Under the pieces are notes generated by a model, which ran no database searches, had not been told where the DNA came from, and was given only the letters and a program-made list of their open reading frames with translations. The translations under genes and the position numbers were made by a program. From an uncultured virus (IMG/VR IMGVR_UViG_3300011855_000001) (Duplodnaviria; Heunggongvirae; Uroviricota; Caudoviricetes): DNA of 64,000 nt. This document shows, in pieces, positions 32,064 through 46,602 of the stretch. The first letter of the stretch is position 1. Every line of letters begins with the position of its first letter. The DNA lies in IMG/VR virus record IMGVR_UViG_3300011855_000001, positions 1 through 64,000 of that record. One strand, given 5' to 3'.

Positions 32064-33860
32064 TTAGACGGTCGCGGTGCCGCTGTACGGACGAGCGTAC
32101 ATGGTCACGAGGATGTAGTTGTTAGGGACGACCGGGGATGCCTCGTACTGAATACGCATTACATCGCCCTCAACAGTCCCGGTAATGTTGCGGAATGCCG
32201 GGCTGTTTTCGTCACCCGCCAGCACTGCCGGGCCCATTGGTTCTGGCTTAGCCAGCTCAGTCAGCTGACCTTTAACAGTGCTCAGTGCCTGAGACAGCAG
32301 GATCGGGGACTGCTTGGAGCCGCGCAGCTGATCCACCGCCTGACGCACGTTACGCTGTGTGAAGTCGATAGCCACGCCGCAGGACTGCTCGCGTTTGTTG
32401 AATTTGCTATCAACCAGCCAGGTCGAAATGGACTGCGTGATTTTGTAGCCAGTATCGGTGTTCTCGATAGGCATCACGCCGCCAAGGATCAGCTCGTCGG
32501 TCTCGGTCGGGTTGTCTAGATCGCGCTCCAGCCCGTTCACGCTGATCACCTTGTTGGTGAGCGGAGTGCCCGGATTCACGCCGCCAAACGCGGCGGCCAC
32601 CAGTGCTGCGGTCATGTACGCCGGGCGCAGCGTCAGCACGCCAGTGTCGTCATACGCGTAGTGCCCGATGTGAACCAGAGAAACGCGGTCGCTGTTCAGT
32701 ACCTTGGCGCGGCGAATTGCTTCCTCGTTGGAGGTGCTGATCGGCGTGCCGACGATAGCGCGGCGCTCTTTGTAGCGGTTTGAGTTGAACTCAACATGCG
32801 CCTTAACGAAACCATGTACGGCTTCATCACCGGAGCACGCTGCCACCCACTGCACGTTGCGCTCTTTCGCCAGCAGATCCAGAGCATTGCTCCAGTCAGC
32901 AGGCAGCGGAGCCACGACAGGCTGAGAGGTCAGGTATTTGTAATCCTGAATCTGCGGGCCATGCCAGATGGCAATCGCGTTAGCAGCGTTCAGCTCGAAG
33001 TCCAGCCAGTTGCCTACGGCATCCTTAAACCATTTCTGGAAGCTGTAGCCGTTCCAGTAGAAGTCGGCGTCCAGCGTTGGCGTAGCGGTATCAGTTTTAT
33101 ATGCCTTCTGATCCAGCACGCTCGGAGATAGAGAACGATAACCAGTGCTCAGGAACGTCATTTCGAACGGTTTCGCGCCGGATGCGTTAGCGGTCACGCT
33201 GTTCACGTAATCAGCGATGTCGCCCAGCGTTTTATACTGGGTTAAATCCAGCTCAATCTTCTGGAGTACGCCATCGCCGCCCTGCTCGTCAGTGACGATC
33301 TCAAAGACGCCCGGAGCTACCAGAATATGGCAGTCCTTCTCTTTGATTTTGAGGTGTACGCCCGGCGCGTTGATGTCGTTGCCAGTCACAGACCATGCAG
33401 ATGCGCCAGTGCCGCCAGCGACGGTCACGGTGTACAGGCCAGCTTTTGAGCCCTGCTCAATCTTGGCTTTGATGCCCAGATCGGTTTTGCTGTACGCCTT
33501 GCCTTTCAACGTGCCGAAAGCGCCAGTGGCATTCGTCGTCCCTGCGATAATTGGCAGGTCGAGGGTGGCCTGAAACGCTTTGTTTACGCGGATAGCGATG
33601 ACAGTCTGAGGAGAGCCAGTCTGAGAGGACGGGGAGAAGGCTTTCACCACCGCATCGCAGAGCTCGCCACCGACCAGCGCCTGTTTAGCCGCGTTGGGGG
33701 TGCTGAATTTCAGCAGTTTGAATGACTCACCACCATCAGCCTGACCGATGTAGGCAACAACGTTCGTTACCGACAGGTTCTGGTTCAGCATGGCGTCATC
33801 GTTCACTGCGGATGCAGTGGTAGGCGTCGTCAGCAGTTGACCATTAAAAAATACGCTCAT
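32064..33860 (-). CDS. tail sheath protein
   Basis: GGELCDA, PLTNK, C-terminal PVVPNNYI. Confidence 0.88.
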   Translation of the reverse strand: MSVFFNGQLLTTPTTASAVNDDAMLNQNLSVTNVVAYIGQADGGESFKLLKFSTPNAAKQALVGGELCDAVVKAFSPSSQTGSPQTVIAIRVNKAFQATLDLPIIAGTTNATGAFGTLKGKAYSKTDLGIKAKIEQGSKAGLYTVTVAGGTGASAWSVTGNDINAPGVHLKIKEKDCHILVAPGVFEIVTDEQGGDGVLQKIELDLTQYKTLGDIADYVNSVTANASGAKPFEMTFLSTGYRSLSPSVLDQKAYKTDTATPTLDADFYWNGYSFQKWFKDAVGNWLDFELNAANAIAIWHGPQIQDYKYLTSQPVVAPLPADWSNALDLLAKERNVQWVAACSGDEAVHGFVKAHVEFNSNRYKERRAIVGTPISTSNEEAIRRAKVLNSDRVSLVHIGHYAYDDTGVLTLRPAYMTAALVAAAFGGVNPGTPLTNKVISVNGLERDLDNPTETDELILGGVMPIENTDTGYKITQSISTWLVDSKFNKREQSCGVAIDFTQRNVRQAVDQLRGSKQSPILLSQALSTVKGQLTELAKPEPMGPAVLAGDENSPAFRNITGTVEGDVMRIQYEASPVVPNNYILVTMYARPYSGTATV

Positions 33861-34100: not shown

Positions 34101-34935
34101 TAGGATTAACCTCAGTAATGACATCCACGATAGTGGCATCAGATTTAAGCCCTACGCGGATCGGCGCAGTGCAGTTGAAATTCCCGGTAACAAGGTACAT
34201 AGGGGAATCATATTCGCCGCTCACCGCATCTTCGGTGCTCAGCGATAACTTAGGCAGCGTGATCCCGGCGTCTGCCAGCACGGTCAGATTGGCGATGATC
34301 ACACGGCGGATGGCCTTTCTCAGCTCCAGACGCTCATCCGGGTTGAGAGACCAGCCAGTAATGGAAATATTGACATCTGCGAGCCAGCCAGCCTGCTCAG
34401 TAAACATGTCGTCGGCTTCATCCATGTACTCAACGTTGATGGCGTCGCCAATAAAGCGCTCGCTTGGCTCCTCGCTTTCCAGCGACAGAGTGACGCATGG
34501 CAGCATCAGGTTGTTTTCCATCTGCGGTGGCGCGGTGAAAACTTGGATATAGCCCAGCTCATTCATCAGCGTTTTGCGCTCGACCTCTACCATCAGCCCG
34601 GCTTCCAGACGGTCGCGCAGCAGCTGGAGCGTATCGGTAGACGCATCCTGATAGGTCGCCATCGGCGTCCCGTAGTTCTCGTTGCTGGGCTCCCAGATGC
34701 CATTGACGTAGTAAAACGCCTTGTAGAAATACTTGACGTTGTTCTGGAGGAAGTGGTGATCGACAAACGCGATGTTGTCCCCCTCGTAAACGATAAGGGC
34801 GTCCGGGTCGCTCATGTCGTCCTTAATCCCTGAGCGGGGGAGGCGCAGCACTTGCCAAGCCGTCGCGCCAGCGGGAGGCTGGAGGAACACTTGCAGTGCG
34901 TTGCCGCAGGACTGGGGCAGAATCAGCGTAATCAT
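34093..34935 (-). CDS. tail completion/terminator protein
   Basis: Position upstream of the sheath; apparently leaderless. Confidence 0.65.
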   Translation of the reverse strand: MITLILPQSCGNALQVFLQPPAGATAWQVLRLPRSGIKDDMSDPDALIVYEGDNIAFVDHHFLQNNVKYFYKAFYYVNGIWEPSNENYGTPMATYQDASTDTLQLLRDRLEAGLMVEVERKTLMNELGYIQVFTAPPQMENNLMLPCVTLSLESEEPSERFIGDAINVEYMDEADDMFTEQAGWLADVNISITGWSLNPDERLELRKAIRRVIIANLTVLADAGITLPKLSLSTEDAVSGEYDSPMYLVTGNFNCTAPIRVGLKSDATIVDVITEVNPNG

Positions 34936-34941
34936 GGCTAT

Positions 34942-34977
34942 ATTGTGCCGTCACGACGCCGGGCGTGATGCTAACCT
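34942..34977. promoter_or_regulatory. back-to-back late promoters
   Basis: Minus: GTCGTGACG-G-CACAAT (34957-34942); plus: GGCGTGATG-C-TAACCT (34962-34977). Confidence 0.75.
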
Positions 34978-42186: not shown

Positions 42187-43326
42187 TCATGCAAGGATTT
42201 TTTCGAGCAGCGCCGCAAAATCAGGGTCGTCACCCGGTTGCGCTTTCGTGGTGGCCACCCAGCGCCCCCGGCAGTGTGGATGCGCCAGCCCGGCAGGAAG
42301 TTGCCAGAGCTCGTCCTCAGTCCGCTTCACCAGCTTCCCGGCGACGCGCTTATATGGCGACGCTGAGCGCCCGATATTGTTTTTACCGGGCCAGATCATC
42401 GTCGCGGGATCTTTGTTGGGGTAATCAGCCGGAACTACCGTGGCGATCTTCCCGTGAATTTTTTTGCAGAATGGGCAGGCGGTGCCGTACATTTCGACAC
42501 GCTTCACTTTTGACATCGGCTCGCACGCGGCGATAAAGCCCTGTAGCTGGCACTCTCCAGCCTCTGTGACGGCGATTCGACGCCAGTCCCTGTTCAGCTG
42601 CGAGAAGTTGTCAAAAAGCTCCTGCTGGAGCGCCTGCTGCGTTCCCGGCTCACCCAGCTGTTTGCGCTCCTCGCTGCGCATGATCACGCCGCGCATCATC
42701 TTCCGGGTGTTGTCCGCCAGATTGACCACGTTCTCAGCCGCGCGAGCGCTGGCAAAGTCCAGCGTGGTCTTTTCGATTTTGGTCAGCGGTACGCCACCGG
42801 ATTCCTCTTTGGTGTTGGGTAGGGCCATCAGCAGCTTGGCGGCGTCGTTAGCCGTCAGCTCTTTCTCCCAGTTAGCCTGGACTTTTCCCAGCAGCGTGGC
42901 TTTGGTTGCCAGCCAGTCGGCTTCCGCGATCAGGACATCCTTCGGCATGTAGGTTTGCACCGTCAGCTCGACGGCGAGAAAATGATCGTCCAGTGTCCAC
43001 TGGTCGAACGGCAGCACGCGCAGGTACAGATCCACCAGCTCGCGCTCCTCCTCAGTCCAGACCTGCATCATGCCCACCTGCGGCTTTGGCTGCGGTTTTC
43101 CGGCCTTCTGGTTCTTACCCAGCTCCCACGCCTCAATCGCCTTTCTGACGTTGCCCAGATGCAGCAGGCCGCGCTGGGTGAACAGCTCCACCAGCTTGCG
43201 GATAAGCGGGCTTTCGTGCGGACGCCAGATATCGCCATCTTCGCCACCGCGAATGGCTTTGTGCATGGTCTCCAGCACTTCATTGGTCACGTATGGCGTG
43301 AGCGATGTCAGATCGAGCGTAATGAT
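42187..43326 (-). CDS. MuF-like head morphogenesis protein (probable ATC start)
   Basis: RDWRRIAVTE, CPFC, HPHCR; TAAGGAG SD lies 8 nt before an in-frame ATC at 43326. Confidence 0.75.
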   Translation of the reverse strand: MITLDLTSLTPYVTNEVLETMHKAIRGGEDGDIWRPHESPLIRKLVELFTQRGLLHLGNVRKAIEAWELGKNQKAGKPQPKPQVGMMQVWTEEERELVDLYLRVLPFDQWTLDDHFLAVELTVQTYMPKDVLIAEADWLATKATLLGKVQANWEKELTANDAAKLLMALPNTKEESGGVPLTKIEKTTLDFASARAAENVVNLADNTRKMMRGVIMRSEERKQLGEPGTQQALQQELFDNFSQLNRDWRRIAVTEAGECQLQGFIAACEPMSKVKRVEMYGTACPFCKKIHGKIATVVPADYPNKDPATMIWPGKNNIGRSASPYKRVAGKLVKRTEDELWQLPAGLAHPHCRGRWVATTKAQPGDDPDFAALLEKILA

Positions 43327-43346
43327 GGCGTAGTCTCCTTAAATTA

Positions 43347-43546
43347 GGTGCCCCCCTTCTGGGAGGGGCGTGCAACCATTCGGCTACCCTTGCGGGCTGG
43401 TTGCTGCGTTCGCTGGCACAGTCACGCAGAGGCCCATCAGCCTCACCCTCAGTCAGCGTGAGGGAGGATTCCCCGGAGGCTCAACCTCCTCCAAGCCCCG
43501 GCGACTAGCGGGGAATGCACAGGTTTGCTTTCGCAATCGGAGCACC
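43347..43546 (-). ncRNA. putative 200-nt structured RNA
   Basis: Closing stem GGTGCTCC/GGGGCACC; GAAA and GCAA tetraloops on the minus strand; several internal stems. Confidence 0.55.
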
Positions 43547-43552
43547 AAAAAC

Positions 43553-45307
43553 TTACAGGTCGGGCAGACCAAACGATTTGTAGAGCCCTTCCTCGTCGAG
43601 GTTCTGCAACGTGTTATGCAGCTCATCGAATTTTTTCTTATTGTCGGCTTGCAGCTGCTCCTGCTCGGCCTGCTGCTGTGCAGCTGCGTCGGCGTCGTCA
43701 GGGTTGGCAGGATCAGCGCCCGGCTCCTCGCCCGGCTGCTGTAGCTCGGCCTGCTGCGCCATCTGCTCGGCTTGAATATCAGCGTTGACCTTAGCCATAT
43801 AAGGCTGCATCGAAACGCTGTTAAGCGGGGAGTTGGCCCAGTCTTCTTTGATTTCTTCCCAGTTGCGAGCGCGGCGTGCTTCGTTGACGGTAAGGAGCGT
43901 TTTCTCCTCGTCCCACGCCTGCTTCGGATCCTTCTCATCCAGACCTGTCCAGCGGAACACGTACTTATCTGAGAAGTCGGAAATGATGTAATCGGTGAAT
44001 AAGTCCTCAAAGTGCGACAGCAGCGGTCGCAGGCCCTTATCCTTCGAGTTGATCAGCTTCTCCTCCGTGTCACTGCCGGACAGCGAACTGGTACCAGCAG
44101 TGAAGGATTCGAAGTTGATCTCGTCCGGGGCGATGCCATAAATAGCGCAGATGATCGCGGTTAAGAACGTCATCCATTTGGCAAACATGATCTCGTTAAC
44201 GTCTACGCCAAAGTTTTCAAATTTCGCCGTGGATTCCGAAGTTTTGGAAACCATGACGGGCAATGTCCATGCGTTATTGATGCCCTTCACCATGCTATTC
44301 CAGTACCGCTTAAAGGAGTTGAGATCCTCGGTAGAATAGTCGCCGGAGAGATGGAGCAGACCTTTCGGGATGGCGTTCGAGTCGAAATACTTCTGGTTGT
44401 ACGTCATGGCGTTCAGGAAGCCCGTGACGGTGTTTACCAGCAGCTCAGTTTCGCTCATCCCGTAACCGCCGTTCAGCACATCGGTGCGGGTGTTGCGCGG
44501 AACATAGATCAGGTCGTTGTAGGTGTAAGCGGTGCGGATGTTACCCTGCACCACCTGTAATGCGAAAATCTCATCATCGCCCTTGTACCCGTCCTCGGTG
44601 CAGAGGCGGATCGTGGCACCATCGACGGCATAAAGCCCGTCCATGCCCAGCGAGCGGTTTTTCTTGAATTCGGTCTCAATCGGCGCGGAGTCCATCACCA
44701 GCGAGTCGCGCACCAGCTTGCTCATGAAGCCTGAGAAGTTATCGCGCTTGAGGCGAGCACGCACGCGGGGGTTACTCTCCCAGCCGCAGTTTTGCATGAA
44801 CATTTGCAGCGCGTTGATGGAGTCCTGCTCGGCTTTCGCCAGCCGCTGTGAGCCGTTCTGCTCTTTCAGGCGAATCTGGAAGCCGGGGCCCACGCCTTTC
44901 TCACTGGCGCGGCAGAAGCGTTTGATCTGGCGGATGCGGGTCATCACCACCGCCGACAGGATTGGCGTCTTGTCCACCATGTAGCGCATGGCATCAAAGC
45001 CAAAGTTTGTCGGACGCTCGTACCAGTCGCCCAGAATCTGCACCTGACGGTCATCCAGCCAGACGGACTGCATACCTTCTTTCTTGCCCTCGCGGACAGC
45101 CTGAGAAGGGTAATCGACCAGCGTATTTTTCTGGAGGGACTTGTAAAATTCCTGATCAGCATATGACTGGGCAATATGCTGAATCAGCGGGGCCAGATCC
45201 GGCACGCTGGAAGGCATTGCAGCTTTCTGCGCTTGCGCCATCGCATCCTGCTGTTCGTCGGCAGGCGCGGCAGGGTTGTGCGCGGTTTGGATGGCGTTGT
45301 CAGACAT
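43553..45307 (-). CDS. portal protein
   Basis: AVDGATIR, GYGMSETE, YFDSNAIPKGLL, LTVNEAR; AAAGG RBS before ATG 45307. Confidence 0.9.
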   Translation of the reverse strand: MSDNAIQTAHNPAAPADEQQDAMAQAQKAAMPSSVPDLAPLIQHIAQSYADQEFYKSLQKNTLVDYPSQAVREGKKEGMQSVWLDDRQVQILGDWYERPTNFGFDAMRYMVDKTPILSAVVMTRIRQIKRFCRASEKGVGPGFQIRLKEQNGSQRLAKAEQDSINALQMFMQNCGWESNPRVRARLKRDNFSGFMSKLVRDSLVMDSAPIETEFKKNRSLGMDGLYAVDGATIRLCTEDGYKGDDEIFALQVVQGNIRTAYTYNDLIYVPRNTRTDVLNGGYGMSETELLVNTVTGFLNAMTYNQKYFDSNAIPKGLLHLSGDYSTEDLNSFKRYWNSMVKGINNAWTLPVMVSKTSESTAKFENFGVDVNEIMFAKWMTFLTAIICAIYGIAPDEINFESFTAGTSSLSGSDTEEKLINSKDKGLRPLLSHFEDLFTDYIISDFSDKYVFRWTGLDEKDPKQAWDEEKTLLTVNEARRARNWEEIKEDWANSPLNSVSMQPYMAKVNADIQAEQMAQQAELQQPGEEPGADPANPDDADAAAQQQAEQEQLQADNKKKFDELHNTLQNLDEEGLYKSFGLPDL

Positions 45308-45336
45308 ACGGTTAACCTTTGCAAAGTAGTCCGCAG

Positions 45337-45360
45337 AGAGTGACATCACGACATCACGAC
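45337..45360 (-). promoter_or_regulatory. late promoter with a tandemly duplicated motif (portal)
   Basis: GTCGTGAT-GTCGTGATG-T-CACTCT. Confidence 0.75.
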
Positions 45361-45362
45361 GC

Positions 45363-45411
45363 AAAATAATTTAAATACCCTCTTGCTATCATCTTTTTTG
45401 CGTGATTTAAT
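45363..45411 (+). promoter_or_regulatory. sigma70-like promoter of the RNA island
   Basis: AT-rich UP-like tract, TTGCTA-17nt-TTTAAT with TG extension. Confidence 0.5.
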
Positions 45412-45788: not shown

Positions 45789-45864
45789 GATTCTGTAGCT
45801 ACAGCGGTAGAGCGGCGCACTGTTAATGCGCGGGTCGCTGGTTCGAATCCAGCCAGAATCGCCA
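45789..45864 (+). tRNA. tRNA-Asn (GTT)
   Basis: Acceptor GATTCTG/CAGAATC, discriminator G, CCA; anticodon arm GCGCA-CTGTTAA-TGCGC; T-loop TTCGAAT. Confidence 0.95.
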
Positions 45865-46074: not shown

Positions 46075-46602
46075 ATGAATATCTTTCGCCGCATCCTGAA
46101 TAAAATCTTTGGCATCCCACCAGTGCCACCAGAGCCGAAGATCGAGCCGCCAAAGTTCGGCGGTGATTTCCCGCGCCCTGTCTCCGTAACGATGAAGGCT
46201 ACCCAGACCGTCAAGCAGGATCCGATGGCTGCGGCGGTCGCCCGCGCAAAAAGGGACGCGGAAAAAACTGCCGTAAAAGGCAAAGTCAGTAGCGCGAGCA
46301 GCAGCTCCACCACAAGCCCGGTATATGATCCACTAATGGATCCACTTAACCCATTAAGCCCGTTATATGTTGGCGTAACAGTTGAGGAACCGCGCCACCG
46401 CGTACAGCATCAGGACGCGACGACGATCAGCGATACCACCCACCGACACGTCGCCAGCCATTCTGAGCCATTGCGCAGCCAAAGCTCACACAGCAGCAGC
46501 CATTCGAGCCATGACTATGGCAGTAGCCACTCAAGCCACAGCAGCCACGACAGCGGCAGCTATGACCACGGCAGCAGCCACCATAGCGGCAGCGACTGGT
46601 AA
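46075..46602 (+). CDS. hypothetical protein with a His/Ser-rich tail
   Basis: GAGGAG RBS; DPLNPLSPLY motif; SSHSSHD repeats. Confidence 0.75.
   Translation: MNIFRRILNKIFGIPPVPPEPKIEPPKFGGDFPRPVSVTMKATQTVKQDPMAAAVARAKRDAEKTAVKGKVSSASSSSTTSPVYDPLMDPLNPLSPLYVGVTVEEPRHRVQHQDATTISDTTHRHVASHSEPLRSQSSHSSSHSSHDYGSSHSSHSSHDSGSYDHGSSHHSGSDW

Follow-up and report, generated by a model that had tools for sequence, protein, structure and literature searches.

A conserved phage RNA family with four predicted pseudoknots, uncatalogued in Rfam

The RNA gap between the portal and MuF-like genes

The stretch of 64,000 nucleotides analysed here (called the window) belongs to a 95,548-bp record of a phage with direct terminal repeats. 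On its minus strand, the genes for the large terminase and the portal protein are followed by the RNA gap, a 367-aa ORF and the genes for a head protease, an unknown protein and the major head protein. The gene downstream of the gap most likely codes for a MuF-like minor head protein, as suggested by a weak match to PHROG 2662 and by the annotations of its relatives (minor head or particle-associated protein); no Pfam family matches it. These relatives are found in Aeromonas phage ST4, Pseudomonas phages Jeremy, Dolphis and Touem01, Bordetella phage PHB04 (Phabquatrovirus) and Morganella phage Mecenats66. Two features lie opposite to the late genes: a tRNA-Asn(GTT) gene at 45789–45864 (+), in a long gap between terminase and portal, and at 46075–46602 (+) a 175-aa ORF with a Ser/His/Gly/Asp-rich tail and no PHROG match.

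The preliminary description of this DNA had reported a GC-rich non-coding gap between the portal and MuF genes. This was borne out: the gap lies on the minus strand between the portal stop codon (43553) and the MuF-like gene, with a GC content of 65% vs 55.7% for the window. All the complementary string pairs listed in that description are present, there is no U-tract at the end of the RNA, and this end precedes the Shine–Dalgarno (SD) sequence of the MuF-like gene by about 5–7 nt (5 nt to UAAGGAG). The gap is 100% identical in Escherichia phage ECML-606-1, 99.6% in Enterobacter phage phiT5282EW and 71% in Yersinia phage fHe-Yen8-01, and it carries no annotation in any of them. We found no paper naming fHe-Yen8-01 in the literature searched.

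Table 1. Features of the portal–MuF junction and parts of the predicted RNA (positions in the window)
Feature	Position	Strand	Remarks
Portal gene	43553..45364	−	Stop codon 6 nt upstream of the RNA
Whole RNA, this subclade (200 nt)	43347..43546	−	Family-wide conserved part 43370–43528
P0 5' strand, closing stem with 43347–43350	43543..43546	−	Subclade only
P1a hairpin, GAAA loop	43525..43536	−	Subclade only; stem letters differ among three phages
S1 strand, pairs with loop L3 (43484–43487) = PK1	43521..43524	−	89.6% paired; 0/10000 permutations
P2 hairpin; 8-nt loop pairs with 43420–43425 = PK2	43496..43513	−	Covariation and permutation test
P3 hairpin; loop consensus GGGCUAAG, window AGGUUGAG	43472..43495	−	98.5% paired; 6/7 pairs with two-sided changes
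P4 hairpin; 7-nt loop pairs with 43411–43417 = PK3	43446..43464	−	Covariation and permutation test
P5 hairpin	43429..43444	−	Often GNRA-capped in relatives; missing in short forms
S2/S3 linker = 3' strands of PK2 and PK3 in tandem	43411..43425	−	Covariation and permutation test
3' core: NCGCAG, P6 (7 bp), G-U, P7, bulge AGYCGNA	43370..43413	−	Core alignments
PK4, bulged pyrimidine 43383	43406–43409 with 43380–43384	−	Within the 3' core
P8 GC-rich hairpin	43351..43368	−	No U-tract in the window; terminator-like in many relatives
SD AGGAG (43335–43339) and probable ATC start (43324–43326) of the MuF-like gene	43324..43339	−	Inferred
MuF-like minor head gene	42187..43326	−	Probable label

As judged by compensatory changes among homologues, the RNA has a conserved fold, with six hairpins and four pseudoknots in the 5'-to-3' order S1, P2, P3, P4, P5, linker (PK2 and PK3 strands), core and P8. 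The GNRA and UUCG loops and the many G-U pairs suggest that it lies on the coding strand. The GCAA-capped hairpin noticed at the outset is P7, a real element whose loop varies freely. The GAAA-capped hairpin is also present but by eye is confined to the window, locus L025 (L numbers designate loci) and the Yersinia phage. The same three phages have a closing stem of 4–5 bp (by eye); the 8-bp length first proposed is specific to the window, where that version competes with P8.

Covariation and the 45-nt 3' core

The RNA stands beyond chance by its conservation, not by its folding energy. The transcribed strand has a z-score of −1.07, with 27 of 200 shuffles folding equally well, and the opposite strand one of −2.37. 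We rejected the minimum-energy fold as the structure, since the pair probability of P3 is 0.03 for the single sequence vs 95–98% paired in homologues.

Loci were taken around relatives of the MuF-like protein in viral, metagenome and genome contigs (80 of 192, 80 of 107, plus 21). A descriptor search gave seeds, from which profile searches by sequence alone converged on 39 distinct sequences. Fifteen seeds were chosen partly for PK3 and P6 pairing, which gives some selection bias for those two helices, and the remaining rows entered by sequence alone. In the unedited MAFFT alignment of these 39 rows (51% mean identity), RNAalifold independently predicted P2, P3, P4, P5 and P6, with two-sided changes at 27 of 29 pairs. 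The 52-pair structure, three pseudoknots included, has 82.7% of its cells paired vs 64.7% after shuffling, and slid controls reach 35–47%. Two-sided changes affect 48 of its pairs, and none of 500 shuffles scored as high; the shuffles take no account of kinship. Support is lowest for the outer three pairs of PK3 (49.5% paired), where the alignment slips.

A permutation test that does not require column alignment of the partner strands compared the pairing of each loop with its own or a foreign strand in 51 sequences. For PK1, PK2 and PK3, none of 10000 permutations was as good as the true combination, compared with 6444, 1744 and 132 for mismatched controls. A pairing of loop L3 with the UAGYCG bulge was tried and rejected (6724 of 10000 permutations as good). 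Thus, the covariation that the preliminary description had proposed to look for in homologous gaps is present, and its view of the gap as a structured RNA that it did not recognise holds, with strong covariation and no Rfam family. Its drawing of the fold does not, and four pseudoknots and a wider family had escaped it. When 38 homologues were mapped onto the pairs of the window, one of its four stems was kept, CAACCA/UGGUUG, which is P6 and is paired in 82%. The other three are not conserved (CUGCGU/ACGCAG, 35%; CCUCAC/GUGAGG, 37%; UUCCCC/GGGGAA, 50%), and their strands belong to other helices and pseudoknots.

The fourth pseudoknot lies within the 3' core, where NCGC pairs with the bulge AGYCGNA around an extruded pyrimidine. 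Among 50 cores, the inner two pairs of PK4 are invariant, the second is C-G in 48 and A-U in 2, and the outer one is C-G (23), G-C (13), G-U (4), A-U (1) or unpaired (9); the window and its nearest relatives have A-A there. Our core search pattern leaves the outer pair free. It is nevertheless formed in 35 of 38 well-formed distinct matches, vs ~17–18 expected from letter frequencies (hand calculation), and in 21 of 28 matches set aside for poor stems, some of which are real members. P6/P7 pairing served as a filter for part of the core set, and it is not independent evidence.

P7 is variable in length and freely extended, and the 5' domain is optional. By eye, the 45-nt core with its invariant bases can also stand by itself: downstream of CII-like genes, within early clusters of hairpins that we take to be c4-like, before small-terminase genes and at the portal–MuF junction of an unrelated phage (L279). 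It often lies 15–30 nt ahead of a start codon. Some stand-alone cores (L223, L241, L261, L189 and L317) may have a divergent 5' domain. A well-formed core at L251 3001–3041 (−) is antisense to adaptor–portal genes, the sole such case seen.

Distribution and genetic surroundings

Among 93 related loci of ~90-kb phages, 43 have the RNA ahead of the MuF-like gene. In a quick tree of 93 distinct MuF-like proteins, one branch (SH-aLRT 98) has it in 40 of its 41 members, and its presence requires 4 changes on the tree vs 31 in shuffles. The other 50 loci are devoid of it, 48 of them with at least 3 kb of upstream sequence. Model R1 detected one copy per locus, on the strand of the head genes, in partly redundant sources (39 of 93, and 11 strong among 100); the genome of the window also has a single copy. 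Whole-record searches gave no match in Bordetella phage PHB04, nor in Mecenats66 and four sister records, with G804 and G805 among the records searched with the core model. In Mecenats66, a decayed or divergent core-like hairpin precedes the minor head gene (L022 2850–2940). The cultured carriers are phages of E. coli, Enterobacter, Yersinia, Aeromonas and Pseudomonas.

A first scan of IMG/VR by pattern yielded 98 stretches, and a second scan 41 that largely overlap with them. They include short forms of 125–150 nt without P5, whose knot sequences are wholly different yet still complementary; some also lose PK1, with a tetraloop in place of L3. Short forms are located either immediately downstream of genes of endolysin, spanin or holin type that face an integrase, or ahead of small-terminase genes. 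A same-strand stop codon usually lies no more than ~45 nt from the start of the 5' domain. The pattern matched once in each of two samples of 401 bacterial genomes, with one of these matches structured (L310); its reversed control gave 2 and 0. A core-model search of 151 genomes, with 40 candidates scored per genome, gave no match, and neither short forms nor cores led to new carriers when compared by BLAST with cultured phages and E. coli genomes. Judging from the pattern matches, the RNA is a phage element rather than a host riboswitch among the genomes searched. It is not always the 5' leader of one gene class, as a riboswitch or cis-acting leader would be.

This distribution bears on a role as a prohead or packaging RNA akin to phi29 pRNA, one of the functions initially suggested, in which loop–strand pairs between molecules would build a ring at the portal. 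In many phages, L279 with its unrelated junction among them, the RNA is a neighbour of portal, MuF-like or small-terminase genes. Like pRNA, it is a multibranch phage non-coding RNA in the 120–200-nt range with covarying loop pairings and head genes nearby, and covariation does not distinguish pairs within a molecule from pairs between molecules. However, two interlocking loops pair together in pRNA, whereas each loop of our RNA covaries with a single-stranded segment. A pRNA would be expected in every phage of the motor type; passages of PMC5066667 describe pRNA from phi29-like phages only. Our RNA is patchy in its clade: the 50 loci without it have the same head module and include two complete genomes searched whole, so that it does not qualify as a general packaging-motor RNA. 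Its carriers have a large terminase, and it also occurs after lysis genes and, as the core, in early regions of unrelated phages. A packaging function is thus weakened, and we consider it highly improbable.

A GTCGTGA..TANNNT motif, late-promoter-like by its form and place, was sought in 42 loci. It precedes the RNA in 10 (24–30 nt ahead), lies between the RNA and MuF in 19 (62–68 nt ahead of the MuF match in 18, 44 in one) and takes neither position in 13, including the window; it never takes both. Similar TCGTGAC..TANNNT/CANNNT motifs are present in the window before downstream genes (32094–32110 and 34933–34956, both −). A GC hairpin follows the RNA in 40 of the 42 loci, with a U-tract in 14. 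The distance between RNA and MuF ranges from 73 to 2693 nt, and where wide, the space contains sigma70-like promoters, tRNAs and c4-like hairpins.

The motif between RNA and MuF in 19 loci argues against a switch specific for MuF. More generally, translational control of the downstream gene (MuF or small terminase), with the ribosome site hidden or exposed by the RNA, appears very doubtful to us. It would agree with the proximity of the RNA to the SD in the window, with the non-AUG start in three phages and with cores near start codons in several unrelated phages. Against it are the very variable distance to MuF, the intervening motif and the absence of a same-strand downstream gene after lysis cassettes. 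The start of the MuF-like gene at ATC is itself probable, given an SD spacing kept in three phages and the N-termini of homologues. An SD 8–9 nt ahead of ATC or ATT was found only in the window, L025 and the Yersinia phage, and the non-AUG start, plausible as it is, is local to them. The other carriers inspected start MuF at ATG or GTG, which, like the intervening motif, weakens the earlier proposal of a cis-regulator of the non-AUG gene.

The same surroundings bring to mind a cis-acting antiterminator or antipause RNA that would bind the host RNA polymerase, like HK022 put, for passage through the following hairpin. Both are phage cis elements that lie on the coding strand and in some cases have a promoter on one side and a terminator on the other. 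In L217, L262 and L310, the core lies ~30 nt after sigma70-like promoters and before terminators; most long forms have a terminator-like hairpin 3' of them, and a host partner would explain conservation across phage types. We nevertheless regard this function as unlikely. The RNA often ends an operon facing a convergent integrase, and MuF has its own promoter-like motif in 19 loci. For the site expected of put, near the operon start and upstream of terminators, the picture is mixed, as it is seen in some loci and not in those after lysis genes. In addition, put is described in passages of PMC9378689 as ~70 nt with two stems, a triplex and an A3–G7 duplex. Our RNA has four pseudoknots, and adjacent stems with a 5' duplex and triplex were not seen by eye in alignments A2 and A5.

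Several minor features of these neighbourhoods were recorded. In L310 (1420–1650), L217 and L262, a sequence that we take to be Fur-box-like overlaps the sigma70-like promoter and is followed by the core, a CU-rich stretch and the terminator. The L310 core adjoins cas1, cas2 and a CRISPR array, upstream of an apparent remnant of a primase gene. Downstream of a sigma70-like promoter, the 400–2700-nt gaps between RNA and MuF in L040, L037, L106, L056, L076, L051, L044, L077, L080 and L189 contain tRNAs, c4-like hairpins and recurring small structured elements, which are for the most part absent from Rfam. In L035 (3460–3528), and similarly in L004–L008, a terminated small RNA with the anti-SD-like stretch UUUCCUCCCU is located just before the MuF promoter; that of L035 scores as Rfam anti-hemB. 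An uncharacterized domain of ~100 aa, free or fused to larger head-region proteins, is encoded near the portal in many loci (e.g. L072 2019–2336) and has no Pfam family. We rejected it as a protein partner of the RNA, as it is present with and without the RNA and missing from the genome of the window.

Possible functions and related RNAs

A stable late RNA acting in trans, either with its own transcript or as a nuclease-resistant remnant of the late mRNA, could serve as a decoy or scaffold for host factors or be carried in the virion. In L030, L020 and L012, the RNA makes up a self-contained unit with the promoter-like motif and the U-tailed hairpin. The RNA heads clusters of tRNAs and non-coding RNAs in many loci, and it is kept in nearly all members of one clade. 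CU-rich, anti-SD-like P7/P8 loops are present in one Pseudomonas-type subclade and in L321 and L322. Such loops, complementary to Shine–Dalgarno sequences and inserted in the variable stems, were seen in L029, L036, L111, L114, L041, L043 (P7 and P8 loops), L321 and L322. However, the window has neither promoter-like motif nor U-tract, stand-alone cores often lie close before a start codon and a conserved seed sequence is absent. On balance we doubt a trans-acting role, the second likeliest of the readings.

We favour, with a probability of roughly one in three, that the RNA processes its own transcript or defines its ends. Of the functions initially suggested, a ribozyme is the leading candidate. 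Self-cleavage by the core, or cleavage by a host RNase that the core directs, would occur at the bulged pyrimidine of PK4 or next to it. The cut would split the late message between the portal and head genes, giving the downstream piece a protected 5' end, and the knotted 5' domain would cap the upstream message against 3'–5' exonucleases. Cutting would thereby adjust how much portal or lysis product is made relative to head proteins, and cores standing alone in non-coding RNA clusters would release small RNAs. Unrelated phages share this core although their portals and terminases differ. A phage protein is therefore an improbable partner, and we infer that the RNA targets either itself or a conserved enzyme of the host.

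A cutting or end-defining element best accounts for an RNA that is indifferent to its gene context and to promoter position. The RNA has no fixed gene partner (portal–MuF junctions, sites after lysis or CII-like genes, sites before small terminase, tRNA and c4-like clusters), the late-promoter-like motif is before it, after it or absent, and it is rare in host chromosomes. Its small invariant core, variable P7 and optional peripheral domain correspond to the anatomy typical of small ribozymes; twister, pistol, hatchet and twister-sister likewise have compact pseudoknotted cores and dispensable peripheral stems. Against transcript processing, no known catalytic motif in Rfam matches the RNA of the window, even at E 10. 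In the 10 loci where the full form follows the promoter-like motif, a shield for the upstream message would be useless, and after lysis genes the downstream product would encode nothing. The L251 core is antisense to its neighbours, and the frequent GC hairpin, with or without U-tract, is equally compatible with a discrete transcript.

Phage ribozymes that process transcripts have a precedent in theta ribozymes (passages of PMC10879173). HDV-like and theta ribozymes resemble our RNA in a compact pseudoknotted core, the conservation of structure over sequence and a loose phage gene context. They differ in topology: they have a nested double pseudoknot with a catalytic C in J4/2, in contrast with the 4-bp bulged knot predicted here by covariation, and a conserved pairing loop inside the core, whereas L7 is free and variable. 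Tentatively, one of two further proposals may hold. Either the 45-nt core represents a novel self-cleaving ribozyme class, a portable mRNA-cutting module in unrelated proteobacterial phages whose detachable triple-pseudoknot domain would regulate it or protect the upstream message, or the full RNA is bound to the proheads or virions of tailed phages of the terminase type.

The RNA is a real four-pseudoknot phage family uncatalogued in Rfam. Rfam 15 at gathering threshold gave no match on the element in the window and in 20 short-form, 12 further and 16 core loci, and the Rfam search of the gap that had initially been advised gave nothing credible with E up to 10. The only Rfam match in the window is the tRNA-Asn, which is also the only tRNA or tmRNA called by ARAGORN. 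Short-word resemblances to group I introns, tmRNA, IRES and FMN-, ZTP- or c-di-AMP-like motifs had no support from Rfam or ARAGORN and were rejected. The raiA motif, ROOL, GOLLD, OLE and the dicistrovirus IGR IRES share a multi-pseudoknot architecture with the RNA, but it is much smaller than ROOL, GOLLD and OLE and matches none of these families in Rfam. ROOL and GOLLD are found close to tRNAs in phages. The IGR IRES, with its three pseudoknots, stands ahead of a non-AUG start; an IRES must be tied to a downstream start, unlike our RNA. No description of such an RNA or of the words of its core was found in the literature, mainly in titles and abstracts and in passages of PMC10690425. Fremin et al. 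(2023) report 8495 candidate RNAs of 29–151 nt from IMG/VR, which may include the core or a short form without a name.

Whichever of the likely functions holds, the RNA would form a structurally new class within an already known functional kind. New classes of small ribozymes are rare. It would likewise be notable, if true, to find an RNA linked to packaging beyond the phi29 group, or a second family of antiterminator RNAs that bind polymerase. The modular build, a stand-alone core with three knots in front, offers a clean natural model for pseudoknot folding. With a fold defined to the base pair by compensatory changes, and with cultured carriers, these predictions are directly testable. Finally, 20 public sequencing runs contain the stretch, all as contigs. 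Four of them were aligned to the window: the element is uncovered in the pieces listed for the two metatranscriptomes, and in one run of unrecorded library type, a 253-nt contig spans 43234–43486.
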